Of a stretch of 64,000 nt of DNA, positions 1 to 38,978 are shown in pieces. Origin of the DNA: Eledone cirrhosa (taxonomy: Eukaryota); NCBI GenBank assembly GCA_964016885.1, contig OZ024747.1:35774001-35838000 (forward strand), given 5' to 3'. Below the pieces are notes generated by a model. The model ran no database searches. It worked only from the letters and a program-made list of their open reading frames with translations, and had not been told where the DNA came from. A program made the position numbers and the translations under genes. Position 1 is the stretch's first letter, and every line of letters begins with the position of its first letter.

Positions 1-1911
1 TAGGGTCGACCATCGGTATCTGGAGTTTGTCCTCAAAGCAGCTGGCTTCGGCCCTGTCTTTAGAAGCTGGATCGTTGCAATGCACAGCGGCACACGCTCG
101 GTGGTCAAAGTTAATGGCCACCTCTCGGAAACATTTCGGCTCTCCCGATCGGTCCGTCAAGGGTGCCCTCTCTCTTCCCTTCTGTACGTATTGACTCTCG
201 AGCCTTTACTGCGGAAGCTGGAGCTGTTGCAGGGCATCCCGCTCGAACCGGGACATGGAAAGGCGGTGTCGGCTTATGCGGACGACATCACCGTGATGGT
301 GTCGAACACCTCAGAAATCGAGGTGGTCGGCACCTTATTGAAAGAATATGAAAGGTTGACAGGAGCCAAACTTAACCCGGAAAAGTCGGTGGGCTTGCAG
401 CTCGGAACCTGGAGAGGCAAGCCCATGCCGTCCAACAGCGTCGTGGGGCGCTGGACGGACGGACCAGTAAAGTTGCTCCGGGTTTGGTTCGGGCCAGACC
501 TCCAGGTGGAAAAGAATTGGGACGAGGTAACGAGCAGAGTAGCCAGTCTCACCCAAAAATGGGCTGGGAGGAAGCTATCACTGAAAGGTCGCGCGGAGGT
601 GGCGAATGCGTACATCGCGTCCGTCATCTATTACCGCCTAACCGTCGTGCCCTGCCCCCGTCCGCGCCTCGTCAAGCTGGAATGGCTCCTCCTCAAATTC
701 TTGTGGAGGGGACAAGTTCCGTTGGTGAGGTGGTCCATCTGCTGCCAGCACCCTCTACACGGAGGGCTGGGCATGCCGTGGCTAATGATGCGCAGACATG
801 CGTTGAGGCTGCGACATCTCCAGATATTCTGCCTCAATGGTGAACAGGTGTGGTCGCCGTTTATCAGACGGGCCTTTCCGCAGCTCATTTCTTTGACTGA
901 GCTGCAGTCCTGGGTCAAGAAGAGACCGAGACTGGATGACTGGCACCTGGAATGTTGCCAGGCACTCACTGCCCTCTACCAAGCGGGCAATGCGATCAGT
1001 AGAACTTCCACTCTCGAGTTTTATAGAGGATTATTGGTGGGCGAAGCTTTGGGCCTCGACGAAGTCGAATTGACCAGTCTGTACCGGAGGACTTTTGAGC
1101 CGGGGACGATGGACAATTTCCAGAAATCCCCCGCTTGGCAGTGCAACCGGGGGGCACTGCCAGTTCGGGATAAACTCTACAGGCACGGAAGTGCTGTCAG
1201 ACGGACCTGCCCAAGATGCGCACAGAACGACGAAACCGTTCTGCACGCACTTGTCCAATGTCCGTGCATTACTGACTTGTGGAGTTATGTCGAACAGCTA
1301 CTGTCGCGTGTGGAACGAATCCAGTTATCGGCCGAGTCCATAGTGAAGATCGAGCTGCCACCTTCCTTAGGTCAGGAAGAGCAGGACATTTTCCTCTGTC
1401 TGTTGGCAGTTGCGAAACAGATTATATGGTGGACCAGGTTGAAAGGACTAAAGACAGACACTTTTCTCTTCGGCCAATCCCTCATCAACTTCTTCAAGTT
1501 TCACATGGAAAGGAGGGTGAGGGTGGAGAGAGAAGTGCTGCCCCCCAGTACATTTGCTAAAAGGTGGGTGAATGTGGCAAGAATGGCTCGTGACCATGCG
1601 CCTATAGGCAAGAATGGCTCTGACCATGCGCCTATAGGCTAGCTAACTTGAGGAGAGGGGTGCTCTCCTGGGTGCCCTAGAAGCGCAGGGTGGTTCAGGA
1701 TTGGTGGGGTACCCGAATCACCCCATGGTCGTCCACCCCCTATCGGGGAATTTATTTTGTTGTATTTTGCATAGTTTATTTTATATTTTATATTTTCATT
1801 GTTAAATTAGTCTTGCCATTGTGCACTTTTACTCGACCTTATTGTAAACCCCCACTGTCCCTGTCTTTGTATTGTCCCCTACATGTCGGCCCTTGTGGCT
1901 AATAAATGAAA

Positions 1912-1913
<2 letters not shown>
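1..1913 (+). mobile_element. Tx1-type (L1 clade) non-LTR retrotransposon, 3' part (copy T1, subfamily A); 5' part lies outside the window
   Basis: ORF 80..1642 has RT motifs (VRQGCPLS, SAYADD) and a C-terminal CPRC..ET..H....C zinc finger. AATAAA at 1901 is followed by an (ATT)n tail. Confidence 0.92.
80..1642 (+). CDS. Tx1 ORF2 C-terminal portion (RT + zinc finger), open from the window edge
   Basis: 520-aa ORF with YADD and CPRCAQNDETVLHALVQC. The C-terminus is altered by a ~30-bp tandem duplication near 1577-1638. Confidence 0.85.
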   Translation: MHSGTRSVVKVNGHLSETFRLSRSVRQGCPLSSLLYVLTLEPLLRKLELLQGIPLEPGHGKAVSAYADDITVMVSNTSEIEVVGTLLKEYERLTGAKLNPEKSVGLQLGTWRGKPMPSNSVVGRWTDGPVKLLRVWFGPDLQVEKNWDEVTSRVASLTQKWAGRKLSLKGRAEVANAYIASVIYYRLTVVPCPRPRLVKLEWLLLKFLWRGQVPLVRWSICCQHPLHGGLGMPWLMMRRHALRLRHLQIFCLNGEQVWSPFIRRAFPQLISLTELQSWVKKRPRLDDWHLECCQALTALYQAGNAISRTSTLEFYRGLLVGEALGLDEVELTSLYRRTFEPGTMDNFQKSPAWQCNRGALPVRDKLYRHGSAVRRTCPRCAQNDETVLHALVQCPCITDLWSYVEQLLSRVERIQLSAESIVKIELPPSLGQEEQDIFLCLLAVAKQIIWWTRLKGLKTDTFLFGQSLINFFKFHMERRVRVEREVLPPSTFAKRWVNVARMARDHAPIGKNGSDHAPIG

Positions 1914-1970
<57 letters not shown>

Positions 1971-1977
1971 GTTATTA
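1914..1977. repeat. (TTA)n microsatellite shared by the 3' ends of Tx1 T1 and Dong D1
   Basis: Read directly; one TTG variant unit near the Dong end. Confidence 0.98.
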
Positions 1978-4423
1978 CTCCTTGAGTCTCAGTCATTGAT
2001 GTTAGTTAACTGGAAAGTTTGTTGGAATGAATATCAAGCCACTACCTGCAGCTTCAGATATTCAGGACGTATCGGAGGGTTCTTGCTGTTCCCAGCAAGC
2101 ATGCCTTTTGAAGCGTTCCAAAAAGCGTGAAGGGGCCGATTTTCTTTAACCATCCCTGGAAACTTTTGGAGAGGTCCCCAGTGCGCCTATGACAATCGGG
2201 ATCACTTTGACTTCATGGCAGTTCCAAATCCTTTTTACCTCCCACTTTAAGTCCTGGTATCGGTTAATTTGCTCCCTCTCCTTCTCTTGCACTCTCGTGT
2301 TGAATGGGCAGGCCACATCCACAATCAGGCACGATCTTTTTTCTTTGTCCACAACCACCAGGTCAGGTCTATTGTGTTCCAGTTTTTCTTCCGTCTGTAT
2401 CCTTAAATCCCACAGCACCTTCACCTGATTGTTCTCCATCACCGCCTCTGGCCTATGCTCATACCATTTCTCAGAATGTGGTGAATTGTTTACTTTGCAC
2501 AGGTGCCAGTGGATCACCTTGCCCATCACATCATGTCTCCAGCCCTTATAGTGGGTCTGGGCTAGGTGTTTACACTCGGACACAATGTGAGCCACAGTCT
2601 CCTCTCTCTCTCCACAGATCCTGCACAGTGGGCTAGCCTCCTCCTTGTAAATATGGTGCTTCAACCACTTCGTTTTGAGGGCCTGCTCCTGCGCAGCCAT
2701 TAGCATTCCTTCTGTAGCCTGTTTGAGGTCTCCTCTTCTCAACCAGTTCCATGTCTGTGGATCTCTAAATTCAGTTTTCTCAAAGAAGGTACTATGAAGG
2801 GATTTTCCCTTAAGGCTGCTCTTCCTCCTTGATGTTATTTCCTCCTTGGACATCCCCTGGCCTACTGTCCCCTCCTTCAGTACAGTTCTGAGCATTGGCT
2901 CCTTACTATAGGTCACGTATTTGTATAGGTTGTTTTTCTCCATCTGAACACAGTCCTCTATGCTGATAAGACCTCTTCCACCCTCAGATCTCCTTAGGTA
3001 GAGTCTATCGACATCACTCCTCTTGTGGAACATGTTGTAGATAGTCAATAGCTTCCTAGTCTTCCTATCCGTTTCTTTTTGTTCAGCAACATTACATCTC
3101 AGAATTCCCGCACTGTACTTAATAATAGACACAGCTCGGGAATTTACTGCGCTTATGACATTTCTGCTGTTCAGATGTGACTTCAATACGCTCCTTACTC
3201 TCCGAATGTATTCAGTTCTTAACAATTCCTTCATTTTTTTGTTCTTTATGCCATCAGCCTCCAGAACGCCCAAATACTTGTACCCTTCCTCAGAGTCAAT
3301 TTCCTTTATCATCTCACCTGTTGGTATCTGGATCCCGTTACTTCTGCTCAACCTACCCTTCTTCATCACAATGACTCCACATTTACCAATACCAAACTGC
3401 ATACATATATCACTGCTGAAAATACGGACAGTGTCAACAAGCACATCCAACTCCTTCTCACTTTTCCCGAAGAGCTTAAGATCGTCCATGAAGAGGAGGT
3501 GATTGATGGTAAGCTCTCCCCTTCCCAACTTGTATCCTGCTCTCACTTTTCGCAGCATAATGGTCAAGGGCATCAGGGCAAGGACAAACAACAGAGGGGA
3601 CAGGCTATCTCCCTGGAAGATACCTCTCTTGATCTTCACGCTTCCCAAGGATACTCCAGTTGATGTCAACTCTGTCTCCCAGGACCCCATACTCCTGCCT
3701 AGCAACTGTCTGATGTTATCTGCCACCCTGAAGATCTCCAGGCTTTTGGTGATCCAGGAATGAGGCACCATGTCAAATGCCTTTCTGTAGTCTATCCATC
3801 CCATGGCAAGATCAGTGTGTCTCCTCCTGCAATTCCCCATTACCATCTTATCAATAAGTAACTGGTCCTTTGTACCACGTGACTTCTTTCGGCATCCTTT
3901 CTGTTCGTCCGGTAACAAGTTGTTTGTGTGGAGGTGATGGTAGATTTCCTCAGACACAATGCTCGTCAACAGTTTCCACATAACGGACAGACATGTGATA
4001 GGTCTATAGTTGGTAACATCATTACACTTGATTCGGTCTTTCATTATCAGAACTGTGGTACCTTTTGTCAACCACTCTGGCACCTCACCCGACACCAAGC
4101 AGTCATTGAACATGGCCGTCAGCTTCGGGTGGAGGGATGTTAAATGTTTAATCCAATACCCCTGCACACCATCTGGGCCTGGTGATTTCCAGTTGGTTAG
4201 TTTTTTGGCCTGCCCCTTAAGAGTTTCAACTGTGATACTCAAATCAGTTTGTTGTTGTGCCTGCTCACCGATCTCCCTCTGTACTGTCTCAATCCACCCT
4301 GCCTGGGCATTGTGTCTAACATCCTGCTCCCATATTCCTCTCCAGAATGTTTTAGTTTGCTCCGCCCCAGGGATCAAGTCGTTGCCTTTTCTTTCCCCTC
4401 AAGCTGTCCAAACAGCATCTTCT

Positions 4424-4424
<1 letters not shown>
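1978..4424 (-). mobile_element. R4/Dong-type RLE non-LTR retrotransposon, 5'-truncated (copy D1, family A)
   Basis: ORF 2146..4377 (-) has RT (KSPGPDG, YRPITCL, DYRKAFD, QGDSLSP, FMDD), a CRIC..ET..H....C finger, RHD and an RPDLVV..IVDV restriction-like endonuclease motif. The 3' end runs into (TAA)n. Confidence 0.93.
2054..4377 (-). pseudogene. Dong RT-RLE ORF, 5'-truncated, with a 1-nt frameshift near the C-terminus
   Basis: The natural end ...ACLLGTARTLRYVLNI* (TGA at 2054-2056) is out of frame with ORF 2146..4377. Confidence 0.8.
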
Positions 4425-4455
<31 letters not shown>

Positions 4456-4461
4456 ATTATT
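4425..4461. repeat. (TTA)n between the 5' end of D1 and the 5' end of T2
   Basis: Read directly. Confidence 0.97.
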
Positions 4462-4670
4462 GGCAACCTACGTAGGAAATCGTATTATCGTGAGCTCCGC
4501 AAAGGTTTGTTATTTCCGTTTGTTTAAAAATTGCCATTTATGGAAAATTTTATTGTAAACTGTTTATAAGCACACATACATTGTTTTCCGAAAAGGACAC
4601 CCAAAAACATTGGGGCCTTGTGCCCAAAATTTTAACTTTTATTATTATCCAAAAATTTATTTGAAAAAAA

Positions 4671-6661
4671 ATGGCTAATTCCCCTCTGCACGAAGCAGCT
4701 GAAAGCCTTCCTCACAAAATAACACCTCACACCGACACCACCATTGTAAATGTTACTACGTTTGCCAACACAAAAAAAAATATAAGCAATAGCAATATTT
4801 TAAATTTGTCTCAGGCAGACATTCATTTCCCGCCATTACCAATGACTGCAGGTGTTAAACCCTCCACCACCACCACCACCACCGCGACAACCACCACCAC
4901 CACCACCACCGCGACAACAGAAACAAAAGAAGAAAAAAATAAATTAACTCGTGACGTCGAAATGAAATCAAGCAAAATGGACTCTTCCCCACCAAAGACG
5001 ACTGACGCCACCACCACCACCACAACTGAAAATAAAATTAATATTAACGATAGCAACAACAACAACAATGACATTATAAAACCGACCCTCAGTTTCGCCA
5101 TCGTAGCAAAACAATTCGAAGCGTTCACGGTAACTCAAGAAGATTTAGAAAATGCCAAACAAATGGTAAAGAAAGATGGGTACAGGGTCAGCCGACCCCC
5201 CCCCCCCCACCTAATAAAATGGAGCATCGGCGCCTGTGCACCGTGTCGTATAGAACAATAAATGTAAAATCGCGCCGAGTGGAACGGGCATCCGAGTCCC
5301 AAATCCAAAAAGCTTTGGGACATGTGTGGGCAAGAAAAACCCACATCAGACGTGGGCAAAAGTATGGAACCGTGGATGTGTTCTTTGAAACACCAGAGGA
5401 GGCTAGAGAACACTCCATGGCCCCATTAAAAAGTGACGACTTCACACTCGTCCCAAGCTATTGTGGCCAGAGACTCGTAAAGATCAGGGTGACCCATGTT
5501 CCACCGGCCATCGAAATTCCCTGGCTAATAGCGGCTGTCATCGCCGGCATCGAGGCCAACACGAAAATAATAACAATAGCAAAAGAAAAGCAGGAAAACT
5601 GGTCCGGATTTGGGATGGAGCTCCTGATCCAAGCGGACCAAAAAAGCATTGAGGAGATCCCAGAGGTAATAGACCTCACTGACGGCAGCCACCTCACGGT
5701 AATTGTCGAGGGCAGAAGACCTAGGTGTGTCGTTTGTGGTGAAGGAACCCACCTAAGGGCTTTCTGCCTTCAGGCTAAAAGGTTGAGGCCACCTCTCCTA
5801 CCCACCCCAGTGACACAACCATCAACACCACCAGTAGCAGAGATGCCAGCAACAACTGTAGCAGCAACAACCGAAGCAACTATAACAGCAACAACCCCAG
5901 CAACAGTAGCAAAACCAACACCACTACCACCAACAGCAAAACTAACACCACCACCACCCAACGCTTCAGAACTAGCACCAGCGCCTACACCATCCACCAC
6001 ACCACAATCAAAACTAACGGCTGTGGAGGATTTTCCACGGCCTATCACAACTGGAGACAGATTGTGACGACGAGGAGTGGGAAACGATATCCGGAAAAAA
6101 AAAAGAAACCAAAAAAGAAAAAATTCTCTTCCTTCCCCCTCCAAAAACAAAATACAGAGGGAAACAAATAAACTAAGAAACAAAAAAGTTAGGACAGATA
6201 TGCCACCATCCACACCAGCATCACCAACCCCATCAACCCAAACACCAACACCATCACCATCATTAACTCCAACACCACCATCACCTACACCACAAAAGTC
6301 ACCAAATTGCGAAACAGAAACAAACCCACAACAAACGCAAACAAAACAAAACAACCAAAACGATACACACTACACAGCATTAAATTTGAACAACAAGCAA
6401 TTATTGCACTACATCCAACACAACACCAGCATCACAGAAAAAGACTACACAACAACCCCAAAATTCACACCACCTCCACACATACAAATCACTCGCATCA
6501 CACAGAAAACGTACATGACACTAAAACAAAAATTCCCCAAAGACATCGGAGACTTCCGACAAGCACTCTCCAGGAGGATTTATAAGGACATCCTTCCTGA
6601 GGAGGCCACAAGCAGTGAAAAGGATGGAAAAGCCGTCCTTCCCCTACGAGAAGTAAGGTAA
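4671..6661 (+). pseudogene. Tx1 ORF1 (gag-like, CCHC zinc knuckle), split into three ORF pieces
   Basis: ORFs 4671..5261, 5219..6067 (CVVCGEGTHLRAFC = CX2CX4HX4C) and 6077..6661. The first break is at the poly-C run ~5196-5208. Homologous to 32870..35024. Confidence 0.85.
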
Positions 6662-6695
6662 GTGGTCTTTCCCATCTTTTCCACTCCTTTTCAAC

Positions 6696-9600
6696 ATGAC
6701 CTCACTCAGAATAGGCAGCATAAATGCGCGTGGCTTGGGGTCGTCATGGAAGCAGGGCCACCTGCTCAACGACCTCAGGTCACTAAACATAGATGTAGTG
6801 GCCATCAGCGAGACCAGAATCTCCGAAGCACAGGCTTTCGCACCGATCTTCGGCGGCTACGATGTGTACGCATCTCCCAGCCGTCCGGGATCGGGGGGAG
6901 GAGTTGCTGTGCTTTTTCGGAGAGGTTTGGATCTTGCCATACGGGCCATCTTCATGGACCCAGAAGGTAAGTTGGTGGTGCTGGACGTGACCAGCGGAGA
7001 CGGGCAAGCTTTCAGGTTAGTGGCCGTCTATGCCCCGACAGGAGCAGGGCGGCCTGATTTCTTCCGGCGTCTGGAGACCTTTCTTGGAACGTCCCGCTCT
7101 TTAGTGTTAGTGGGCGACTGGAACGGGATCTTAGATGCACGCTGGGATTGTGTGGGATTAGTGGATAGGGAAGGAGGGTGCAAGAGTCTCACCAACCTGC
7201 TCAGACGTTTTCAACTGGCTGACAGGTACCGAATGGATTTCCCGAATGTACCAATGTGGACTTGGACAAATCGCATAGGGTCATCCAGATCATATCTAGA
7301 TAGAGTATTTTGTAGGGAAATAGATAGGTCTAGCATAGGCTGTCCACAATTCAAGATAGTCAGCTACACGGACCACAAATTCGTGATCTGTGTGCTTGAC
7401 TTAGATAGGCTTCATAGACGAGGACCCGGCTACTGGAAGCTAAACGCGTCCTTACCAGCGCGCAAGGCCTACAGAGACCGGATTAGCGAACTAGTTAAGC
7501 GGGCGTTGACGGGGGCCATCGTCAACAACAAGTGGTGGTTTGCTCTGAAAAGAGCAATTAGAATAGAGTCCATTAGGTTTAGTAAGACTTTAGCAATAGA
7601 GAAAAATAGAGCAGAGGGAGAATTAGTTAGAAAATTAGATGAGGCGCTTAGCAAAGGCATCGCGACCGACGTACTTGCGGCGAAATTGGCCCTTGACCAA
7701 TTCTTCAATGCAAAGCACGAAGGCTGCGTTGTCAGAGCTAGGGTGCGTGCTCTCAGACACGAGGGGACGAAAGCCGTTGAATGGGCCCGAGTGGCGGAGG
7801 CGCGTCGTGGCAACAAAGCCACGATCCGGTCTTTGGTGGACCACGACGGGCGCATGCTACTCGATCCCGGGCAAATGTGTGAAGCTTTTCAGCGACACTT
7901 CGCTCAACTGTTCGGGGGCAGTGGCGGGCCGGATGGAGGGATGGACTTTAGTGTCTACCTCGACGGACTGCCGCGGCTTTCGGCCACTGAGGCGGAGTGT
8001 TGCGAAAAGCCGATAACAACCGCTGAAGTACGGGATGCAATGACTAGTTGCACAAGGGGCAAATCGCCTGGTTTGCATGGTCTGCCCTATGAACTTTACG
8101 TACAAATGCCAAACTTGTTCGGAGGCCTCTTGGCGGACGTCTACTGCAACTGGCAACAGAACGGGAGAATTCCCAGCTCTGTGAGCCGAGGAGCGGTGGC
8201 GCTGCTGAGAAAGGATCCGAACAAGGGGGATAACATAGATAATTTTAGGCCCATAACTCTGCTAAACACAGAGTTCAAGATTTTGGCCAAGGTGCTAGCA
8301 AAGAGGTTGGCGCTTGTCGTTGGTGGTCTGGTGGGAGAGGCACAGACATGCGCCATTCCCGACAGATCCATCCACGACAACCTCCACCTCATGCGATACA
8401 TCGTAGAGAGGGTAGCTAGGGAACCTGGCACGGGTGTGTCTTTGATCAATTTAGATCAGTCGAAAGCCTTCGATAGGGTCGACCATCGTTACCTAGCGGC
8501 AGTCCTGAGGGCCGCTAGCTTTGGGCCCGTCTTCAGAGGCTGGATCGCTGCCATGCACAGCGACATCTGCTCTGTAGTGAGAGTGAACGGTCACCTTTCG
8601 GAACCGTTCAACATCATGCGCTCGGTCCGCCAAGGATGTCCCCTCTCGTCCCTATTGTACGTATTGACTGTCGAGCCATTACTGCACAAACTGGAGACGT
8701 TGAGGGGGTTCCGCGCGAACTAAGATGCGGAAGATCCGTGTCAGCATATGCCGACGATGTCACCGTAGTGGTGTCGAACGCCAAACACATCGAGGCGATC
8801 GGCACTACACTAAGAGAATACGAAGCGGTGACAGGAGCAATGATCAACCAGAAAAAGTCAGTGGGCCTGCAGCTCGGCACCTGGAGAGGCAGGTCCATGC
8901 CGTCCAACAGCGTCGTCGGGCGCTGGACGGACGGACCGGTTAAATTGCTAGGGGTCTGGTTCGGTCCAGACCTCCAGACGGACAAAAACTGGGACGAGGT
9001 GACGAGCAGGGTGGCTTCTCTCACCCAGAAATGGGCCGAGAGGAAGATATCCCTAAAAGGTCGAGCGGAGGTGGCGAATGCGTACATCGCATCCGTCATC
9101 TACTACCGCCTGACCGTCGTACCTTGTCCTAAGCCCCGCCTGACTGCGCTGGAGCGTTTGCTCTTTCGCTTCTTGTGGAAGGGACGCGCTCCGATGGTCA
9201 GGCGGTCCATCTGCTGTCAACACCCGCTACGTGGAGGGCTGGACATGCCGTGGCTGATGATGCGCAGACACGCGCTCAGGCTACGACATCTCCACCTCTT
9301 CCTCGACGGTGATCAGGTGTGGTCGCCGTTTGCAAGACACGTTTTACCCCAGCTCGTCTCCTTGACGGAGCTGCAGTCCTGGGTCAAGCGAAGACCGAGA
9401 GGGAGCGCTTGGAGACTGGAATGTCTTCAGGCGCTCACAGCCCTCGACCAATCGGGCAATGTGATCGGTGGAAACTCCACCTTGGCGTTCTATAGGGGAT
9501 TAGTAGAGGGGAAGAGCGACGACGTACTTGGAGAAACTCTAGGCGTCGACGAAAATCAACTAGCCAATCTCTTCGGAAGGACTTTCGGGCCGGGGCCTAT

Positions 9601-10114
9601 GGACAACTTCCAGAAATCCCTGGCCTGGCAGTGCTACCGAGGAGCTTTGCCAGTTCGGGATAAACTCTACAGGCATGGAGGTGCCGTCAGCCGGGCATGT
9701 CCGAGATGCGCGCAGGGCGACGAAACCGTCCTGCACGCACTCGTCCAGTGTCCGAGCATTGCTGACTTGTGGGTTTATGTCGAACACCTGCTGTCACGTG
9801 TAGGACGGATCCAGCTATCAGCTGAGTCCATCGTGAGGATTGCCCCACCCCCTTCCTTTAGCCTGGAAGGGCAGGCAGTTTTTATCTGTCTGGTGGCCAT
9901 GGCGAAAGAGATAGTATGGTGGACACGTTTGAAAGGGCTGAGGACGAGCACTTACCTCTTCGGTGATGCCCTGATTAACTTTTTCAAATTTCATTTGAAA
10001 AGGAAAATCAGGGTAGAGAGGGAAGTGCTCTCTTCCCAGCATTTTGTTGAAAGATGGGTGAGAGAAGCAAGTATGGCCCGAATGAATGGGCCTTCTCTGA
10101 GTATGTGTCTGTAA
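6696..10114 (+). pseudogene. Tx1 ORF2 (APE endonuclease + RT + zinc finger) with one frameshift near 8706
   Basis: APE motifs SINARG, SET, VYAP, GDWN, YLDR, TDH; RT motifs FRPITLLN, DQSKAFD, RQGCPLS, YADD. ORFs 6696..8723 and 8636..10114 overlap at a G run. Confidence 0.92.
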
Positions 10115-10356
10115 ATTAAAGGTGGAAAACTGGGAGAGGGCACTTGCCCTGGTGGTCAGGGCCACTGTGGTCTTTTAATGGGCTTTCTCCACAAATGTCC
10201 CTTGGAAGTCTCCCCCCTATTGGGGAATTTTTCTTTGTTATTTTATTTCAACCTCTGTTTTTTTACACGCAGAAATGCCCATTTGTACCGTCCTGTATTG
10301 TCCTGTACTGTCCTTAATGTCTACTTTATGTGAACCCTTGTGGTTAATAAAGAAAA

Positions 10357-10357
<1 letters not shown>

Positions 10358-10402
<45 letters not shown>

Positions 10403-10409
10403 GTTATTA
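10358..10409. repeat. (TTA)n shared by the 3' ends of T2 and D2
   Basis: Read directly; same TTG variant unit as 1914-1977. Confidence 0.98.

Positions 10410-14947: not shown

Positions 14948-15013
<66 letters not shown>
14948..15013. repeat. (TTA)n
   Basis: Read directly. Confidence 0.98.
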
Positions 15014-15014
<1 letters not shown>

Positions 15015-15415: not shown

Positions 15416-15488
15416 TTCTTCTTCTTCTTCTTCTTCTTCTTCTTCTTCTTCTTCTTCTTCTTCTTCTTCTTCTTCTTCTTCTTCTTCT

Positions 15489-15535
<47 letters not shown>

Positions 15536-15563
15536 TTCTTCTTCTTCTTCTTCTTCTTCTTCT
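15416..15563. repeat. (TTC)n/(GAA)n tract, probably the tail of the adjacent RTE fragment
   Basis: About 49 units read directly. Confidence 0.95.
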
Positions 15564-23010: not shown

Positions 23011-23015
23011 TGTAT

Positions 23016-27700: not shown

Positions 27701-29415
27701 TCTCCTCCCTTTTGTACGTATTGACTCTCGAGCCTTTACTGCGAAAGCTGGAGCTGTTGCAGGGCATCCCGCTCGAACCGGGGCGCGGAAAGGCTGTGTC
27801 GGCTAATGCAGACGACATCACCGTGATGGTTTCGCACACCTCAGAAATCATCGTGGTCGGCAACTTATTGGAGGAATATGAAAGGTTGACGGGAGCAAAA
27901 CTTGGGCTTGCAACTCGGCACCTTGAGAGGCAAGTCCATGCCGTCCAACAGCGTCGTTAGGCGCTGGACGGGCGGACCGGTAAAGTTGCTAGGGATTTGG
28001 TTCGGGCCAGACCTCCAGGTAGATAAGAATTGGGACGAGGTGACGGGCAGGGTAGTCAGTCTCACCCAGAAATGGGCTGAGATGAAGCTATCACTGAAAG
28101 GTCGGGCGGAGGTGGCGAACGCGTACATCGCCTCCGTCATCTACTACCATCTGACCGTCGTCCTTTGCCCCCGTTCGCGCCTCGCCATCTTGGAGCGGCT
28201 CCTCTTCAAATTCTTGTGGAGTGGTCAGGTTCCGCTGGTGATGGCTGGGCATGCCGTTGCTAATGATGTGCAGGCACGCGCTGAGGCTGCGGCATCTCCA
28301 GATATTCTGTCTAAACGGTGAACAGGTGTGGTCGCCGTTTGTCAGACCTTTGTCAGGGCCTTTCCGCAGCTTGTTTCTTTGACTGAGATGCAGTCCTGGG
28401 TCAAGAAGAGACCGAGGCTGGCTGACTGGCATCTGGAATGTTGCCAGGCACTCACTGCCCTCTACCAGGCGGACAATGCTGTCAGTGGAACTTCCACTTT
28501 CGAGTTCTATAGAGGATTAGTGGTGGGCAAGTGCGACGACGCACCACGGAAAGGCTCTGGCATCAACGAAATCGAACTAACCAGTCTGTACCGGAGAACT
28601 TTCGAACCGGTGACGATGGATAATTTCCAAAAGTCCCTCGCTTGGCAGTACTACCGGGGGGGGGGGGCACTGCCGGTTCGAGAGAAACTCTACAGGCACG
28701 GAAGTGCTGTCAGACGGACCTGCCCGAGATGCGCGCAGAGCGACGAAACTGTTCTGCACGCACTCGTCCAGTGTCCGTGGATTACTGACTTGTGGAGTTA
28801 TGTTGAACAGCTGTTGTCCCGTGCAGAACGGATCCGGCTATCGGCCGAGTCCATAGTGAAGATCGACCCGCCGCCTCCTTTTGGCCAGGAAGGGCAGGCA
28901 ATTTTCCTCTGTCTGTTGGCAGTTGCGAAACAGATTATATGGTGGACCAGGTTGAAAGGACTGAAGACTGACACTTTTCTCTTCGGCCAATCCCTAATCA
29001 ACTTTTTCAAGTTTAACTTGGAAAGGAAGGTGAGGGTGGAGAGGGAAGTGCTGCCCCCCAGTACATTTGCTGAAAGGTGGGTGAATGTGACGAGAATGGC
29101 CCGTGTGAGTGGGCCTACTCTGGTCATGCGGCTGTAGGTAGGTAAATTTGAGGAGGACAGGGGTGCCCTTCAAGGGTGCTCTCAAAGCGTCGTGTCGTTC
29201 AGGATTGGTGGGGTACCTGAGCAAACCCTAGGTGGTCATCCCCCCCTATTGGGGAGTTTTTCTTGTTGTAATTTTATTGTTACTTGATTGTTACTTTGTT
29301 ATTGTTACTTTGTTATTTTTATACATATTGTTTACTCGATTTTTCTGTAAAACCCCACTGTCCCTGTCTTTTGTATTGTCTCCTATATGTCGGCCCTTGT
29401 GGCCAATAAACTAAA

Positions 29416-29417
<2 letters not shown>
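24730..29417 (+). mobile_element. Tx1-type LINE (copy T3, subfamily A), 5'-truncated inside ORF1, decayed
   Basis: Knuckle remnant at ~24850, ORF1 end at ~25720, ORF2 25752..29137 in many pieces (closest to T1: LELLQGIPLEPG), AATAAA at 29405, then (ATT)n. Confidence 0.9.

Positions 29418-29453
<36 letters not shown>
29418..29453. repeat. (TTA)n shared by the 3' ends of T3 and D4
   Basis: Read directly. Confidence 0.97.
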
Positions 29454-32400
29454 GATCTTTGAGTCTCAATCATTGATGTTAGTTAACTGGAAAGTTTGTT
29501 GAAATGATATATCAAGCCACTACCTGCAGCCTCAGATATTCAGGACGTATCTGAGGGTTCTTGCTGTTCCCAGCAAGCATGCTTTTTGAAGTGTTCCTAA
29601 AAGCGGGGCGGGGCCAATTTTCTTTCACCATCCCTGGAAACTTTTTGAGATAGTACCTAGTGCGCCTATGACAATCGGGACCACTTTGACTTCATGGCAG
29701 TTCCAAAGCTTTTTTACCTCCCACTTTAAGACTTGGTATCGGTTAATTTTCTCCCTCCCCTTCTCTTGCACTCTCGTGTCGAATGGGCTTTATTTGTTCC
29801 CCTCTTCATTACAAAGACTCCAAACTTACTAATACCAAATTGCATACATATATCATTGCTGAATATACGGACAGTGTCAACAACCTCATCCAACTCCTTC
29901 TCACTCTTCCCGAAGAGCTTAAGATCGTCCATGAAGAGGAGGTGATTGATGGTAAGCTCTCTCTTTCCCAACTTATATCCTGCTCTCACCTTTCGCAGTA
30001 TAATGGTCAGGGGCATCAGGGCAAGGTCAAATAACAGAGGGGACAATCTATCTCCTTGGCAGATACCTCTCTTGATCTTCACGCCTCCCAAAGATTCTCC
30101 AGCTGATGTTAACTCTGTTTTCCAAGTCTTCATACTTTTGCTCAACAACTGTCTGATGTTATCTGCCACCTTGAAGATCTCTAGGATTTTGGTGATCAAA
30201 GAATGAGGCACCATGTCAAAGGCCTTTTTGTAGTCCATCCATCCCATGGCAAGACCAATGTGGTGTCTTCTCTCGCAATTCCTCATTACCATCTTATCAA
30301 TAAGTAACTGGTCCTTTGTACCACGTGACTTCTTTCGGCATCCTGTCTGTTCGTCCGGTAACAAGTTGTTTGTGCGCAGGTGATGGTAGATTTCCTCAGA
30401 CACAATGCTTGTCAACAGTTTCCACATTACGTACAGACATGTGATAGGTCTATATTTGGTAACATCATTACCCTTGATTCGGTCTTTCAGTACCAGAACT
30501 GTGGTACCTTTTGTCAACCACTCTGGTACCTCACCTGTCATCAATCAGTCATTGAACATGGTTGTCGGTTTCGGGTGGAGGGATGTTACATTTTTAATCC
30601 AATACCCCTGCACACCATATGGGCCTGGTGATTTCCAGTTGGTTAGTTTGTTGGCCTGCCCATTAAGAGTTTCAACTGTGCTACTCAAATCAGTTTGTTG
30701 GTGTGCCTGTTCACTAATCTCCTTTTGTACTGTCTCAATCCACACTGCCTGGTCATTATGATTAACATCCTGCTCCCATATTCCTCTCCAGAATGTCTTA
30801 GTTTGTTCCACCTCAGGGATCAAGTCGTTTCCTCTTTCTTTCCCTTCAAGCTGTCCAAACAACATCTTCTGGTTGTTGTCAAACATGCGGTTCTGTCTAT
30901 ACTGACTGACTCTGCTCTCATATCGCCTAATTCTGTATTCTCTGCTACGATGCGTTGCTTCAGTTTCTGTATGATAATATTTAGCCTTTTCCTCCTAGTT
31001 TTGTAATTTATTTCCATTCTATTTTTAGTGTCTATGTTTTTTAGTGTCCCACTCAGTAAGGACTCAAGCTTTTCAATGTCATTTCTCATTTCCCTGATTT
31101 GACCATTCAGTCGTTTCTTCCACCAAGGTTCTGATCTTTCTTGTTTGTGTTTCCTCTCGCTTTTATGCCAAGTAATTTTACCGCATTTGCTGTTGCTTTG
31201 AGGATATTGTTGCACTGGTTCCTCGCTTCAAGGTATGCGATGACTTTTTTACCTTAGCTGTTGTTTCTTTTAACTTTTTCCTGTCTACAAATCTTAGGTT
31301 CATAGGTTTCCCACTATCATTGTTCATTTCATCTACCACTATGTTTAGGTTATCAACCAAATCTTGTCCTAGCCCGTCAGCATTCATCACCTCAATGGCC
31401 GTATCTTTGTTCCAGGTATTATTTATTTCAGCATTCAGATCATTGTCTGACTCGGATGGTTCCTCCGTTCTCTCAACCTCTTCACCTCTATTTCCCACTG
31501 GCTCGTTTGCCTGACATACTCCACTCTCCATTTCCAACCTAATCTCTCTGCTCAGTTCCTCCAGTTCCAGCTCGCTTATCCACCCATTAGTTCTTATTAC
31601 CCGAGCCTGCCCGGCCAATTTTTGTTCATCTAATTTAAATAGACCAATCTCGTTTCCTGTAGCCCTTTTCCTTGGGGTTACTCTTCAGGTAACATTGCAT
31701 AACAGTTCTATTCAATTTTTTCGTCCAGTTGGTTCTGGTCCCTTTTCTTCTTCTTCCTCCGACACCAGCAGTATTTGGTTGACAGCCAGGTCCCTGATGC
31801 TGAGCCAGGGAGCACCTGCTGAGCCAGGGAGCACATGACATTTTAGTCTCCACTTCACCATTATTCGAACTGTTTAGTTTCGACATTGAAACACTCTTAT
31901 CGAGGATTGGTGAATGTATGGTTACATAACCACCGGTGATTTGATCACCCTCGGTGATTTTAGCGTGGCACTATCACGCTGTAGACGAACATAAATAAAC
32001 AAACAAACAAATAGGTACGCCCCCCCCCCAAAAAAAAAAAGCATAAGTTTCATTGTAATGTAATGTTTGAATGTCTGACTTAGTTTTTTTGCTTGTTTGT
32101 CTGTCTGTTTGTTTTTCTTTTCATTTTTCTTTTCTTTACGTTTTTCGTTGCTGCTGTGCTGTTTTGATTTTGATTTTTGATTTTTTGTATCTTTGACTGA
32201 GTCATCAAATCAGTCTATTTATATTTTTTGATACCATCTCATTTAGTGGGAATACTATGATGCCTGTCTTAGCAGTGGAAAAGAATAGTGGCGGTAGCAA
32301 TAATGAGGCAGTGGTGATGGTGATGTGATCGTAGTACTGTAGTGATGGCGTTGAAGTTGAAGTAAAAATAGAAGTTGAGGTAACTTGACTAGAGTTTTAG

Positions 32401-32672
32401 GCGTGGTAGTGGTGGTGTTGATGGTGAAATTAATTGCCTGTCTGTCCACTTAGCCATTTTTCTCTTTTTCGACGATAACATTTCTGATCCAAAATTAAAT
32501 ATTAAATATTGGGGCCCTATGCCGTAATGTGCTGCGTGTCGCCTGCTGAGGGTCAAAACTGTAATCTTATATTTCATTTGTAATAAAAATTATTCTATCA
32601 CAGTTGTTTTAAATAAGTAAAATCAAAAACTTACGGGAGCGATTCCATAACGATATATATCCACCATGTGCG
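29454..32672 (-). mobile_element. Dong family A copy D4: 5' end retained, ~1-kb internal deletion near 29790
   Basis: ORF start MSKLNSSNNGEV at 31886; RT in 29726..30544 joins directly to the RLE tail; leader homologous to the D2 leader. Confidence 0.88.
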
Positions 32673-32689
32673 TTATTATTATTATTATT
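32673..32689. repeat. (TTA)n between the 5' ends of D4 and T4
   Basis: Read directly. Confidence 0.93.
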
Positions 32690-35600
32690 GAATGCTATGG
32701 TTGACGGAGGCTCGGCTCTGTAAGGTATTGTAAATTTTGAATACTATAACAATTGTAAATTGTTTAAAACTTTAACGAACTTGTAGACAAAAACACCCTC
32801 CTCCTCGTGAGAGGGGTCTTTCTGCACGTTATTTGGCCCTTCGGGGTTAAATAGCTGCTTATTGGGGTTTTGGACCCAATATTTATTTTAAACAAAAAAA
32901 AAAACAACATAGCTACGAAAAAGAAATTTCATAGGTCACTCCCACTCATTCCGTCTTCTTCTTCCTCAATCATCACTACAACAGAGAGAAGATTGTCTCT
33001 CTCCCTCCCTTCTTTAATAAATGTGTCTCTCTCCCTCCCTTCTCTTTCGCAAGCGACGAAAGAAAAGAAAAGTCTCGTGCAAAGCGTGCAAGGTTTGTCC
33101 ACGACGACGACGACAGCGACGAAACAGGTGTGCGGGAAATATGAAAACCCAGTTCATTCGTCTGACGTCAGGAATAATAGCAGTAGCAGCCGTAATAACA
33201 ATAGCAACAGTGACAATGAAAACAACAGTAGCAGCCGCAACAGCATCACCAGCAGCATAAACAACAACAGCAATAGCAGCAGCAACACCAACAACAACCA
33301 CAGCAACAGCGGCGGAGGCAGTAGTCGTAGTACCTGCAGCAACAACAAAAGTAACAGCAGCTCTGACAACAACAGCAACAACAGCAGCAAAGAAAAACCA
33401 ATCTCATTTGCAGGTATTGCGAAAAACTTGGAAACAATCCTCATAACAAATGAGGAATTAGAGGAAGCGAAGAAGATGGTGACAAAGACTGGACACCGAG
33501 CAATCTGCAAAGCTGCGGAAACATTTTTCGAAACCCAACAGCACTGTACGGTCACGTACCGTACAGCAAGTACAAAATCCCGTAGGGTGGAAAGAGCCAC
33601 AGAGTCTCAAATACAAAAAGCCTTGGGGTCTGTGTGGCAGCGGAAAACGCACATCACCCGAGGCAAAAAATATGCCACCGTAGACGTACTTTTTGCCACA
33701 CCCCAGGAGGCAAAGGCCCAATCCGTAGTGACCCAAGGAGTGAGGAAATGGTGTTGGTGCCCTCCTACTGCGGGCAAAATAATTGTGAGGGTCAAACTGA
33801 CCCACGTCTCCCCCGGGATGGCCCCTTCTTGGCTGGTCGCGTCTGTCCTCGTCGGAATCGAGGACAAAACAACAGTACTGCAAGTACAGAAAAAAGTAAG
33901 AGAAGATTGGGTCGGCACCTCCATTGAGATGCTAATCCAAACCAACCAGGAGTGCATCGAAGCTATCCCGGATGTGATAGACTTCGATAACGGCACTCAA
34001 CTGCCCATAAGTGTTGAGGGAAAACGCCCGAAATGCTTTCGCTGTGGATCGAAGACTCACCTCAGGGCCTTCTGCAACGAGAAGACCCTGAGAAAGGAGA
34101 AAACCCCCCTCCATCCGAAACCGGCTCCACGGCTACCAGCAACAGGACAAGCGGCAGCCAGGAACGATAGGTCCGTGGCACCCGTACCCACGCCACGGAA
34201 ATCAAAGACAGCAGTAGCAGTGGAAATATTAACAACAACAACAGCAATACCAAATGCAGCTGCAACAGAGACTCCAGTGCAAACATCACCAACAACAACA
34301 AGTGAAAGAGTGGAGCTGGTAGCCCTCCCCGACCTCACAGAATCAGACATGCAGTGTGAGGTGGGAGAGAGATGGCAAAAGGTCGTAAGAAGGCACAAAC
34401 GCAGAAGCAGCGCATCGTCGCCTTTGAAAAGGGAGGAAAGAAATAAAAAAAAGCGTAAAGTCTACTGCAAAGAGACCCACAGCAGCAACACCACCAACAC
34501 CATCACCACCAACACTAGCACCACCATCACCACCGGCGACAACCCCACCGCCAACAACACCTTCAACACCACCAACACCACCAACACAAGCACCAACATC
34601 GCAAACACAACAACAAAACACACACACCCAGCAACAACGACAAGAAAATAGCAGAACCACACCCCACCCCCAGAAAAACAAATGCACGGCAATAAATACA
34701 CACAACAAGAAACTAATGACTTACATAATTGAACACACAGACATTTCACAACACGACTACATAATACCAGCACCAATCAAAACGCCAACTAACATAAGAC
34801 TGCTAAAAATAGCACAGAAACAATACACAAACATTAAAACGAAATTCCCCAACGCAGTTGGTGATTTCAGGGACCTAGGAGGAACTATCAATCGAAGAGT
34901 ATATTCAGACATTCTCATAGAAGAGACGACGACCAGCCGAAGGGACGATTCAACGGTCCCTTCACCAGACGATCAAGTGAAAAGGGATGTAAAAACCATC
35001 CCTCCTCTACGAAAAGTACGGTAAGTAGTCTTTGCCATCTTTTCCACTCTATTTTAAACATGACCTCACTCAGAATAGGCAGCACAAATGCGCGTGGCTT
35101 GGGATCGTCATGGAAGCAGGGTCACCTGCTCAACGACCTCAGGTCACTAAACATAGATGTAGTGGCCATCAGCGAGACCAGAATCTCCGAAGCACGGGCC
35201 TTCGCACCGATCTTCGGCGGCTACGATGTGTACGCATCTCCCAGCCGTCCGGGATCGGGGGGAGAAGTTGCTGTGCTTTTTCGGAGATGTTTGGATCTTG
35301 CCATACGGGCCATCTTCCTGGACCCAGAGGGTAAGCTGGTGGTGCTGGACGTGACCAGCGGAGACGGGCAAGCTTTCAGGCTAGTGGCCGTCTATGCCCC
35401 GACAGGAGCAGGGCGGCCTGATTTCTTCCGGCGTCTGGAGACCTTTCATGGAACGTCCCGCTCTTTAGTGTTAGTGGGCGACTGGAACGGGATCTTAGAT
35501 GCACGCTGGGACTGTGTGGGATTAGCGGATAGGGGTGGAGGGTGCAAGAGCCTCACCAACCTGCTCAGGCGTTTTGAACTGTCTGACAGGTACCGATTGG

Positions 35601-38600
35601 ATTTCCCGAATGTGCCAATGTGGACTTGGACAAATCGCATAGGGTCATCCAGATGATATCTAGATAGAGTATTCTGTAGGGAAATAGATAGGTCAAGCAT
35701 AGGCTGTCCACAATTCAAGATAGTCAGCTACACGGACCACAAATTCGTGATCTGTGTGCTTGACTTAGATAGGCTTCGTAGACGAGGACCCGGCTACTGG
35801 AAGCTAAACGCGTCCTTACCAGCGCGCAAGGCCTACAGAGACCGGATTAGCGAACTAGTTAAGCGGGGGTTTACGGGGGCCATCGTCAACAACAAGTGGT
35901 GGTTTGCTCTGAAAAGAGCGATTAGAATAGAATCCATTAGGTTTAGTAAGGCTTTAGCAATAGAGAAAAATAGAGCAGAGGGAGAACTAGTTAGAAAATT
36001 AGACGAGGCGCTTAGCAAAGGCATTGCGACCGACGTCCTTGCGGCGAAATTGGCCCTTGACCAATTCTTCAATGCAAAGCACGAAGGCTGCGTTGTCAGA
36101 GCAAGGGTGCGTGCTCTCAGACACGAGGGGACGAAAGCCGTTCAATGGGCCCGAGTGGCGGAGGCGCGTCGTGGCAACAAAGCCACGATCCGGTCTTTGG
36201 TGGACCACGACGGGCGCATGCTACTCGATCCCGGGCAAATGTGTGAAGCTTTTCAGCGACACTTCGCTCAGCTGTTCGGGGGCAGCGGTCGGCCGGGTCG
36301 AGGGATGGACTTTAGTGTCTACCTCGACGGACTGCAGCGGCTCTCGGCCACTGAGGCGAAGTGTTGCGAAAAGCCGATAACAGCCGCTGAAGTAAGGGAA
36401 GCAATGACTGGCTGCACAAGGGGTAAATCGCCTGGTTTGGATGGTCTGCCCTATGAACTTTACGTACAGATGCCAGACTTGTTCGGAGGCCTCTTGGCGG
36501 ACGTCTACTGCAACTGGCAATAGAACGGGAGAATTCCCAGTTCTGTGAGCCGAGGAGCGGTGGCACTGCTGAGAAAGGATCCGAACAAGGGGGACAACAT
36601 AGATAATTTCCGGCCCATAACTCTGCTAAACACAGAGTTCAAGATTTTGGCCAAGGTGCTAGCAAAGAGGTTGGCGCTTGTCGTTGGTGGTCTAGTGGGA
36701 GAGGCGCAGACATGTGCCATTCCCGACAGATCCATCCACGACAACCTCCACCTCATGCGATACATCGTAGAGAGGTTAGCTAGGGAACATGGCACAGGTG
36801 GGTCCTTGATCAATTTAGATCAGTCGAAAGCTTTCGATAGGGTCGACCATCGTTACCTAGCGGCAGTCCTGAGGGTGGCTGGCTTTGGGCCCGTCTTCAG
36901 AGGCTGGATCGCTGCCATGCACAGCGACATCTGTCTGTGGTGAGAGTGAGCGGACACCTGTCGGAACCGTTCAACATCATGCGCTCGGTCCGCCAAGGAT
37001 GTCCCCTCTCGTCCCTCTTGTACGTATTGACTCTCGAGCCATTACTGCACAAACTGGAGACGTTGAGGGGCGTCCCGCGCGAACTAGGTTGCGGAAGATC
37101 CGTGTCAGCATATGCGGACGATGTCACCGTAGTGGTGTCGAACGCCAAACACATCGAGGCGATCGGCACTACACTAATAGAATACGAAGCGGTGACAGGA
37201 GCAATGATCAACCAGGAAAAGTCAGTGGGCCTGCAGCTCGGCACCTGGAGAGGCAGGTCCAAGCTGTCCAACAGCGTCGTCAGACGCTGGACGGACGGAC
37301 CGGTTAAATTGCTAGGGGTCTGGTTCGGTCCGGACCTCCAGATGGACAACAACTGGGACGATGTGACGAGCAGGGTGGCTTCTCTCACCCAGAAATGGGC
37401 GGAGAGGAAGCTATCCCTGAAAGGTCGAGCGGAGGTGGCTAACGCGTACATCGCGTCTGTCATCTGCTACCGCCTGACCGTCGTACCTTGTCCTAAGCCT
37501 CGCCTGACTGTGCTGGAGCGTTTTCTCTTTCGCTTTTTGTAGAAGGGACGCGCTCCGATGGTCAGGCGGTCCATCTGTTGTCAACACCCGCTACGTGGAG
37601 GGCTGGGCATGCCGTGGCTGATGATGCGCAGCCACGCGCTCAGGCTACGACATCTCCACCTCTTCCTCGACGGTGGTCAGTTGTGGTCGCCGTTTGCTAG
37701 ACACGTATTTCCCCAGCTCGTTTCCTTGACGGAGCTGCAGTCCTGGGTCAAGCGAAGACTGAGATGGAGCGCCTGGAGACTGGAATATCTTCAGGCGCTC
37801 ACAGCGCTCGATCAATCGGGCAATGAGATCGGTGGAAACTCCACCTCGGCGTTCTATAGAGGATTAGTGGAGGGGAAGAGCGACGACGTACTTGGGGAAA
37901 CTCTACGCGTCGATGAAAATCAACTAGCCAATCTCTTCGGAAGAACTTTCGGGCCAGGGCCTATGGACAACTTCCAGAAATCTCTGGCCTGGCAGTGCTA
38001 CCGAGGAGCCTTGCCAGTTCGGAATAAACTCTACAGACATGGAGGTGCCGTCAGCCGGGCATGTCCGAGATGCGCGCAGGGCGACGAAACCGTCCTGCAC
38101 ACACTCGTCCAGTGTCCGAAAATTGCTGACTTATGGGTTTATGTCGAACACCTGCTGTCGTGTTTAGGACGGATCCGGCTATCATCTGAGTCCATCGTGA
38201 GGATTGCCCCGCCCTCCTCCTTTAGCCGGGAAGGGCAGGCAGTTTTTATCTGTCTGGTGGCCATGGCGAAAGAGATAGTATGGTGGACACGTTTGAAAGG
38301 GCTGAAGACGAGCACTTACCTCTTCGGTGATGCTCTGATTCACTTTTTCAAATTTCATTTGAAAAGGAAAATCAGATTAGAGAGGGAAGTGCTCTCTTCC
38401 CAGCATTTTGTTGAAAGATGGGTGAGAGAAGCAAGAATGGCCCGAGTGAATGGGCCTACTCTGAGTATATATCTGTAAATTAAAGGTGGAAAACTGGGAG
38501 AGGGCACTTGCCTTGGTGGTCAGGGTCATTGTAGCTTTTTACTGGGCTTTCTCCACAAATGTCCCTCCGAAGTCTCCCCCCTTTTGGGGAATTTTTCATT

Positions 38601-38731
38601 GTTATTTTTTGTTACACCGTCTGTTCTTCCTTCTTTTTTTACACGCAGAAATGCCCATTTGTACCGTCCTGTATTGTCCTGCACTGTCCTTAATGTCTAC
38701 TTTATGTAAACCCTTGTGGTTAATAAAGAAA

Positions 38732-38733
<2 letters not shown>
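32690..38733 (+). mobile_element. Full-length Tx1-type LINE (copy T4; ORF2 of subfamily B, divergent ORF1)
   Basis: ORF1 32870..35024 (CFRCGSKTHLRAFC); ORF2 35060..38478 with several stops and a frameshift; 3'UTR like T2; (TTA)n tail 38734..38790. Confidence 0.94.
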
Positions 38734-38781
<48 letters not shown>

Positions 38782-38978
38782 GTTACTATTATGTTTTTTT
38801 GTTTTTTTCTCGTGCAATGGCCATACTCGATAATGAGGGTACAACCATCATATATATTCCTTTATTATATTTCGAATACCTAACGATGTCACCGGCTTCA
38901 TACTGAACCCGGTCATTGAAATGATCATAGTATAATAAAACTTGTATGGAATTATACCAATATCCAATCTCCTGTTAT

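Follow-up and report, generated by a model that had tools for sequence, protein, structure and literature searches.

Tx1-type and Dong-type LINEs occupy (TTA)n microsatellites in fixed opposite orientations in the Eledone cirrhosa genome

TRAS and SART are R1-clade elements with an APE endonuclease, and R1 and R2 occupy different sites within one gene, in the same orientation and without regenerating their target. In Bombyx mori, TRAS and SART are two LINE families that use opposite strands of one simple repeat, (TTAGG/CCTAA)n, and run in opposite directions (available text of PMC7265360), an arrangement resembling the one described here. Unlike the mostly telomeric TRAS and SART, the present pair combines an APE with an RLE element and uses a trinucleotide microsatellite that is dispersed over the genome. 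R1 and R2 in 28S rDNA are likewise an APE and an RLE element that meet at one target locus, and B. mori Dong (R4 clade) and Rex6 are, like our Dong-type elements, RLE elements that insert into TAA repeats (PMC1635306, in the part available). On the APE side, Kibi at (TC)n, Koshi at (TTC)n and crocodilian Tx1 at (TTCC)n/(TTTC)n are, like our Tx1-type elements, microsatellite-specific, APE-encoding members of the L1 group; (TTA)n differs from the targets given in the text of PMC4494074, whose figure 3 and supplements may name more, and the literature searched yielded no Tx1 described as (TTA)n-specific.

The window, a stretch of 64,000 nucleotides of contig OZ024747.1, contains four APE/RT-type (Tx1-type) copies, all on the plus strand, and six Dong-type copies or fragments, all on the minus strand, as identified by tblastn and Pfam (Table 1). 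This inventory matches that of an earlier note on the same DNA, as do the tail-to-tail junctions at 1914, 10358 and 29418, the head-to-head junctions at 4425 and 32673, and the common polarity of the junction tracts: within 1-38,790, all eight perfect TTA runs of at least four units lie on the plus strand, and there are no TAA runs. The note had further read this interval as one array grown from one microsatellite. Its antiparallel copies are confirmed, but the single array and the single origin are not, because the copies form two trains 6.6 kb apart, with unrelated sequence at 15,416-22,036; the first train begins ~9.1 kb left of the window start (locus L151), and the joins at ~23,005 and 24,712-24,724 lack TTA. 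The Dong pieces represent two families with 36-57% amino acid identity between them.

Table 1. Features of the two trains and the DNA between them, in window coordinates. The RTE, MITE and SINE labels are our presumed assignments.
Feature	Position	Strand
3' part of Tx1-type LINE copy D, with RT, zf-RVT and 3' UTR; 5' part left of window	1..1913	+
(TTA)18 tract between Tx1 and Dong tails	1914..1977	+
Dong1 copy A, 5'-truncated; 750-codon open frame (RT, CCHC knuckle, PD..D RLE motif)	1978..4424	-
(TTA)9 tract between truncated 5' end of Dong and Tx1 head (head-to-head)	4425..4461	+
Tx1-type LINE copy A, full length; CCHC knuckle in ORF1; ORF2 (APE-RT-zf-RVT) broken into two frames	4462..10357	+
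(TTA)14 tract between Tx1 and Dong tails	10358..10409	+
Dong1 copy B, full length, frameshifted	10410..14947	-
(TTA)22 tract, Dong1 head to Dong2 tail (Dong-Dong tandem junction)	14948..15013	+
3' fragment of the second Dong family (Dong2) with internal deletion; closes train 1 on the right, next to (TTC)n tract	15014..15411	-
Outside both trains: RTE-like, MITE-like, SINE-like and decayed LINE pieces; no TTA junction	15416..22036	.
(TTC)50 tail of RTE-like LINE 3' end	within 15416..22036	-
Inverted MITE-like pair and SINE-like piece	within 15416..22036	
Decayed LINE bearing RT	~19.4-21.9 kb	+
Degenerate (TTA)n tract bounding train 2 on the left	22037..22101	+
Dong1 copy E, old 3' fragment; direct join to Dong2 without TTA	22102..23009	-
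Dong2 copy without both ends; direct join to truncated Tx1 copy C without TTA	23005..24724	-
Tx1-type LINE copy C, 5'-truncated in ORF1, decayed	24712..29417	+
(TTA)11 tract between Tx1 and Dong tails	29418..29453	+
Dong1 copy C with its two ends retained and an internal deletion at ~29,790	29454..32672	-
(TTA)5 tract between Dong and Tx1 heads	32673..32689	+
Tx1-type LINE copy B, full length; 5' end and ORF1 unlike copy A; ORF2 region ~95% identical to A	32690..38733	+
(TTA)15 tract bounding train 2 on the right	38734..38792	+

The Tx1-type copies of the window and an intact 1,139-aa ORF2, copies of which are present in the genome, match Pfam PF03372, PF00078 and PF13966 (N-terminal APE, RT and C-terminal zinc-binding domain), and the endonuclease matches L1 EN structures. 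A separate ORF1 with a CCHC knuckle is a trait of the Tx1 clade; such a gag-like knuckle (C-X2-C-X4-H-X4-C) was read by eye from the sequence in ORF1 of copies A and B, and Pfam gave no knuckle match in Tx1 ORF1. As homologue searches returned no named reference, "Tx1" is a structural assignment. The Dong-type frame of 750 aa carries RT followed by CCHC and PD..D motifs, which we take to be a knuckle and a restriction-like endonuclease, and lacks PF03372. Its best PDB matches are R2 proteins (E 3e-31), and none of the best 120 homologues listed has an informative name. One long ORF of this composition, with R2 proteins as nearest solved relatives, is also what Dong has. Our elements differ from Bombyx Dong in their at least 7,345 dispersed Dong1 tails, in a second family (Dong2) with the same head as Dong1, in some GAA targets and in their co-occupancy with Tx1. 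For silkworm Dong, an HDV-like ribozyme has been shown (PMC3774820, in the part available), whereas Rfam gave six weak, unrelated matches in 1-40,000 and none to a ribozyme family, and the heads fold no better than shuffled sequences (z -1.25 to 0.30, for folds without pseudoknots). Tx1 tails number at least 13,204 genome-wide, and Tx1-like and Dong sequences make up ~4.2% and ~1.6%, respectively, of 560 kb sampled. A look-up of expression listed no RNA that carries the elements, an outcome that speaks neither for nor against their transcription.

Both families sit in (TTA)n/(TAA)n tracts throughout the genome, in fixed opposite orientations, and the preference holds at both ends of the elements. 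An ATT tract lies upstream of all 100 Tx1A heads listed among 1,781 matches, 99 of them in the phase ATT|GG, and 30/30 Tx1A tails end in (ATT)n; a (TTA)n-specific Tx1-type family thus exists. Among 100 Dong heads listed and counted by eye, ~88 follow TAA, 6 GAA and 1 ATT, and 30/30 Dong1 tails end in TAA. The opposite polarity is obeyed by 176/178 element ends at tracts. The two also lie together much more often than by chance: in C1:1-37.1 Mb, 17/45 Dong1 tails adjoin a Tx1 tail, whereas uniform placement would predict 0.06. Truncated copies are informative on the target because what lies upstream of them cannot be leader sequence belonging to the element itself. After removal of same-family joins read as internal deletions (11 Dong, 13 Tx1), a tract of the family's own polarity precedes 60/74 5'-truncated Dong copies and 14/26 5'-truncated Tx1 copies (absent in 14/74 and 12/26), with opposite-polarity tracts at 0 and 1, respectively. 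The window locus is typical of this genome, which contains ~70,000-155,000 TTA tracts: trains of 10-30 kb occur in the window and elsewhere, in line with the tens of kilobases that the note had envisaged (a train at one other locus measures 28.6 kb).

We propose, with a probability of about 0.85, that a Tx1-type APE LINE and two Dong/R4-type RLE families independently nick opposite strands of (TTA)n/(TAA)n and that serial insertion into leftover tracts builds the trains. The opposite orientations probably arise because the unrelated endonucleases nick opposite strands; we infer this strand-specific nicking from the orientation of the copies. Under the TPRT model, Tx1 copies, which read along the TTA strand, would require a nick on the TAA strand, and the phases ATT|head and tail|ATT would place it at AAT^AAT; the Dong RLE would nick the TTA strand. 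One insertion would split one tract into two, leaving tracts on both sides, and since each insertion leaves two tracts, a locus would gain targets as elements accumulate, whichever family they belong to. Deletions and local recombination would later edit the trains. Ages vary within one train: nearest-neighbour identities of the window copies range from 89.6 to 99.75%, Tx1-type copy A being the youngest, and the younger partner at a tail-to-tail junction may belong to either family (small sample).

A different account dispenses with endonuclease specificity and supposes that (TTA)n tracts, being fragile, are broken in some other way and that target-like RNA tails then anneal to them, this pairing setting the orientation. 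In its favour, the tails of both families do match their target, base pairing by itself would suffice to fix the polarity, and the tails of a sister Tx1 lineage in the same genome are (ATCT)n, so that the tail changes along with the target. The fixed phase of Tx1 heads nevertheless fits a defined cut, catalytic motifs, whose roles we presume, appear to be kept in both endonucleases, and an endonuclease swap between TRAS and SART swapped specificity (PMC7265360, in the part available); we therefore consider the account very unlikely, although RNA-DNA pairing may aid targeting. That the array owes its origin chiefly to tandem or segmental duplication of a Tx1-Dong unit, or is an assembly artefact, is extremely unlikely. 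The 3' 1.1 kb of Dong copy A matches that of copy B at 99.4% identity (best other match, 97.4%), from which it follows that recombination also acted at this locus, and no read or contig among the raw reads and contigs of the species spanned the examined stretch. Outside the 1.1 kb, however, A and B differ by ~4-5%, and among the four Tx1 copies pairwise identity is 73-95% and the heads differ, so that unit duplication was rejected as the copies are too divergent. The junction classes of the window recur at 22 other clusters and in raw reads, with the join of a Tx1 tail to a Tx1B head found in 1,580 reads (72 starts) from another sample of the species. A mobile Tx1B-Tx1A dimer from one source received no support from the two loci checked out of 17, where the upstream copies are 4% different and the more distant neighbours are not the same.

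Independent use of the repeat must also be weighed against an obligate or facilitated partnership, in which Tx1 and Dong favour each other's tails or co-insert, for example when a single break primes the two RNAs, one on each strand, and so produce alternating trains. Such a special relation had been suggested in the earlier note. In the window and L151, 5/7 two-sided TTA junctions are mixed; short truncated Dong-Tx1 head-to-head fusions without TTA occur at L027, L083, L106 and L020; and Tx1C and Dong heads have a 14-of-15-base motif in common (5/2000 shuffles). Yet elsewhere mixed junctions account for 24/52 (Tx1-Tx1, 9; Tx1-Dong, 14; Dong-Tx1, 10; Dong-Dong, 19), the types being independent (Fisher p = 0.78) and same-family tandems no rarer than mixed junctions, in 22 of 34 C1 clusters mapped (the last in part), chosen for at least two tails. 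Pure Tx1 trains and pure Dong trains both occur, and tract loss is no commoner beside the other family than beside unique DNA (Tx1, 4/10 versus 8/14; Dong, 6/25 versus 7/26). A small null sample, taken from evenly spaced stretches that total 760 kb, contains 27 tracts. Compared with it, a Dong tail lies to the right of 10/30 young Tx1 tails versus 7/27 tracts (p = 0.58), and the youngest Tx1A heads lie behind another Tx1 tail in 17/29 cases versus 3/27 random tracts (p = 0.00025). This excess over the random-tract share means that tracts are not chosen entirely at random, a point that weighs against the proposed model, and the youngest Tx1A heads mostly follow another Tx1, contrary to alternation. 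Co-insertion by two-RNA twin priming was rejected, direct Dong-Tx1 fusions not being in excess, and an obligate or facilitated partnership seems very improbable.

Beyond independent nicking and serial insertion, we tentatively entertain a wider and rather doubtful hypothesis of self-amplifying landing pads. Acting on opposite strands, the APE and RLE LINEs might be the source of much of this genome's stock of long (TTA)n microsatellites and accumulate in polarised trains by the thousand, whose convergent and divergent transcription might yield dsRNA or piRNA sources silencing both families; a 5' module (a promoter or self-cleaving RNA) may even be exchanged between the unrelated elements, freeing copies from read-through transcripts.

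The proposed nicking is directly testable with young intact Tx1 copies. It would extend the opposite-strand, shared-repeat scheme of TRAS and SART to two unrelated endonuclease classes and tens of thousands of dispersed sites, and it would add (TTA)n to the targets of Tx1-type APEs, beside an (ATCT)n sister lineage in one genome, the two lineages forming a natural test of APE specificity change. TTA microsatellite markers in this species often sit between mobile elements, and serial insertion into shared tracts would provide a simple mechanism for LINE hotspots in its genome.

By translation, tblastn and Pfam, the window holds four elements with APE, RT and zf-RVT domains on the + strand (Tx1, a structural assignment) and six Dong-like pieces on the − strand, the same inventory and orientation that the earlier note had read from the sequence. 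All eight perfect TTA runs of at least four units in 1-38,790 lie on the + strand, and there are no TAA runs. The earlier note took this whole interval to be one grown microsatellite, but it comprises two trains (runs of Tx1 and Dong elements linked by (TTA)n tracts) of ~24.5 kb and ~16.8 kb, since 6.6 kb of unrelated DNA separates them and train 1 extends left of the window, where the adjoining 10 kb carries a Dong fragment, then TTA22, a full Dong and the Tx1D head, with no perfect tract at the join between the full Dong and Tx1D. The intervening DNA begins with a (TTC)50 tract, which is the tail of an RTE-like LINE 3' end. As Dong uses GAA tracts too, the (GAA)n tail of the RTE-like LINE may be a former target of the adjoining fragment of Dong2, one of two Dong/R4-type families (Dong1 and Dong2). 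Head-to-head fusions of truncated Dong and Tx1 with a few-base overlap and no tract were also seen, at a frequency no higher than that of ordinary tract loss.

Features of the two trains, of other repeats in the window and of comparison stretches (L-numbers, from the same genome; coordinates without a prefix are window positions)
Feature	Location	Detail
Window	C7:35,774,001-35,838,000	
Train 1, left to right		Tx1D, TTA18, Dong1A (truncated), TTA9, Tx1A (full), TTA14, Dong1B (full), TTA22, Dong2 fragment
Train 2, left to right		degenerate TTA tract, Dong1E, Dong2, truncated Tx1C, TTA11, Dong1C, TTA5, Tx1B (full), TTA15; Dong1E-Dong2 and Dong2-Tx1C joins direct
RTE-like LINE (GAA)n tail	15411-15564	right end of train 1
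Near-identical 3' 1.1 kb of Dong1A and Dong1B	1978-3030; 10410-11460	
Unrelated 5' ends on related Tx1 ORF2	4462-4700; 32690-32960; L151:6054-6340; L279-L281; L296	types A-E
Tx1C heads compared with Dong head	L296; L301-L302	
Dong head	14885-14947	− strand
Dong-Tx1 fusions, tract absent	24712-24724; L027; L083; L106; L020	head to head
Pure Tx1 trains	L032-L060; L321; L322	young head-to-tail tandems
Sister Tx1 lineage	L185:2200-8050	ATCT tract also ahead of next copy
Pair of MITE-like inverted repeats containing (AT)n	16442-16662; 17006-17301	related copy at 38853-39096, just right of train 2
1.2-kb inverted repeat arms	41171-42333; 45085-46212	85% identical
97-99 bp tandem repeat	44929-45227	at end of the 1.2-kb inverted repeat
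AT/ATAC low-complexity sequence	51933-63974	large inverted and direct repeats, e.g., 53410-54362 vs 58758-59700, 91%

The target specificity of both elements, which had been proposed as insertion into (TTA)n with opposite fixed polarity, is genome-wide, and polarity was obeyed at 176 of the 178 element ends adjoining tracts in the mapped clusters, window included. In this 3.0-Gb genome, the head of copy Tx1A matched 1,781 times with a pattern that constrained the upstream sequence at one A/T base only; among the matches listed, an ATT tract lay upstream in 100 of 100 and the phase ATT/GG held in 99 of 100. Tx1A 3' ends ran on into (ATT)n at 30 of 30 loci, and 30 of 30 Dong1 tail loci ended in TAA; genome counts were 13,204 for Tx1 tails with ATT (tail pattern) and 7,345 for Dong1 tails (exact pattern). 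Dong heads numbered 1,504, and by eye ~88 of 100 matches listed were preceded by TAA, 6 by GAA, 1 by ATT and 5 by other sequence. Because a head flank could be cotranscribed with its element, 5'-truncated copies were examined: Dong lay at a tract of its own polarity in 60 of 74 cases and at the opposite polarity in 0, and Tx1 in 14 of 26 and 1, respectively, counts that exclude same-family joins read as internal deletions (11 Dong, 13 Tx1). A sister Tx1 lineage has the same 3' motif but (ATCT)n tails and makes up ~16 of 100 3' ends listed (eye count, contig C1); its endonuclease (L185) is 58% identical to that of Tx1A, and this genome thus likely harbors a Tx1 specificity for a second microsatellite.

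Trains are common in this genome. In C1:1-37.1 Mb, 70 adjacent tail pairs lay ≤15 kb apart vs 8.2 expected, and 17 of 45 Dong1 tails abutted a Tx1 tail vs 0.06 expected under uniform placement. Among the clusters mapped there (22 of 34, the last one in part), the longest uninterrupted TTA-linked train was 28.6 kb; other computed lengths span gaps of ≤2.6 kb and are bounded by the ends of the stretches taken. The junction classes also occur in raw reads from another sample of the species (e.g., Tx1 tail into Tx1B head, 1,580 reads with 72 starts), in which no read or contig spanning the window locus was found. The feature is real, occurs genome-wide and is more general than the earlier note saw, but the window locus is ordinary for its genome. 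Tx1B and Dong1 pieces find matches of ≥95% in contigs of run X4 (organism B), which shows that a relative has these families too.

Two accounts of how such trains arise were rejected. Unit duplication is excluded at the window locus since its Tx1 copies are 73-95% alike and carry different heads. A Tx1-Dong partnership had been implied by the earlier note, and in the window with its left flank five of seven two-sided junctions, a small sample, are mixed and near-alternating. Outside the window, neighbor type is independent (Tx1-Tx1, 9; tail-to-tail, 14; head-to-head, 10; Dong-Dong, 19; Fisher p = 0.78), and Dong tails were not significantly commoner to the right of young Tx1 tails (10 of 30, one via a short SINE piece) than to the right of tracts in a sample of 10-kb stretches taken at even intervals (76 stretches; 7 of 27 tracts; p = 0.58). 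Either family can appear younger at tail-to-tail junctions, the apparent younger partner at 10 of these being Tx1 in 2 and Dong in 3, with 3 within one point and 2 giving no estimate. The departure from random tract choice favors like with like, not alternation: the youngest Tx1A heads stood behind another Tx1 tail at 17 of 29 loci vs 3 of 27 tracts taken at random (p = 0.00025), 10 of the 17 upstream tails being very young as well, and the same arrangement accounts for 9 of 30 Tx1 heads in the mapped clusters. This excess may stem from long, pure tracts or from template jumping.

With nearest-neighbor identity among the copies compared as a rough age proxy, window copies range from 99.75% (Tx1A) to 89.6% (Dong1E), and train 2 is older than train 1. 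Dong1A and Dong1B differ by 5 mismatches over their 3' 1.1 kb, where other copies compared are ≤97.4% identical, so that this near-identity is private to the locus; beyond it they diverge by ~4-5%. From this pattern we infer a crossover or conversion between alleles, one with Dong B beside Tx1D and the other with the later Dong A and Tx1A insertions. At least five unrelated 5' ends occur on related Tx1 ORF2, and Dong1 and Dong2 have heads in common despite 36-57% protein identity, which suggests that 5' ends were exchanged repeatedly. In a post hoc shuffle test, Tx1C and Dong heads had in common the motif TCGCTCCC(A)GTAAGT near +23 to +50 (5/2000 shuffles) and Tx1B and Dong heads also aligned (3/2000), while the remaining 13 of 15 head pairs did not; the Tx1C/Dong motif may be a promoter or RNA element in common.

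Among published systems, TRAS inserts into one strand of (TTAGG)n and SART into the other, the two running in opposite directions (PMC7265360); Dong and Rex6 have TAA repeats as insertion targets (PMC1635306); and within the Tx1 clade the microsatellites (TC)n, (TTC)n, (TTCC)n and (TTTC)n serve as targets for Kibi, Koshi and families from crocodilians (PMC4494074). Octopus accounts give Dong-R4 and L1-Tx1 as abundant or recently active, and the available portions of these accounts contain no mention of TTA targeting (PMC13282606, PMC8967140, PMC9115989). Neither a Tx1 specific for (TTA)n nor trains of Tx1 with Dong came up in our literature search, which did not extend to Repbase, so an earlier report may exist.

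APE motifs in Tx1 and RLE motifs in Dong are present, and intact Tx1 ORF2 copies of 1,139 aa exist in the genome. In target-primed reverse transcription, copying starts from a nick in the strand opposite to that along which the element reads. On that model Tx1, which reads along the TTA strand, would start copying where the TAA strand is nicked, and the junction phases ATT/head and tail/ATT would place its cut at AAT^AAT, a TpA step like that cut by L1 endonuclease; Dong, whose junction phase is looser, would nick the TTA strand. The main rival to strand-specific nicking is that orientation is set by annealing between tail and target, and such annealing may in any case assist insertion. As each insertion would keep tract on both its sides, targets for these elements would multiply locally.
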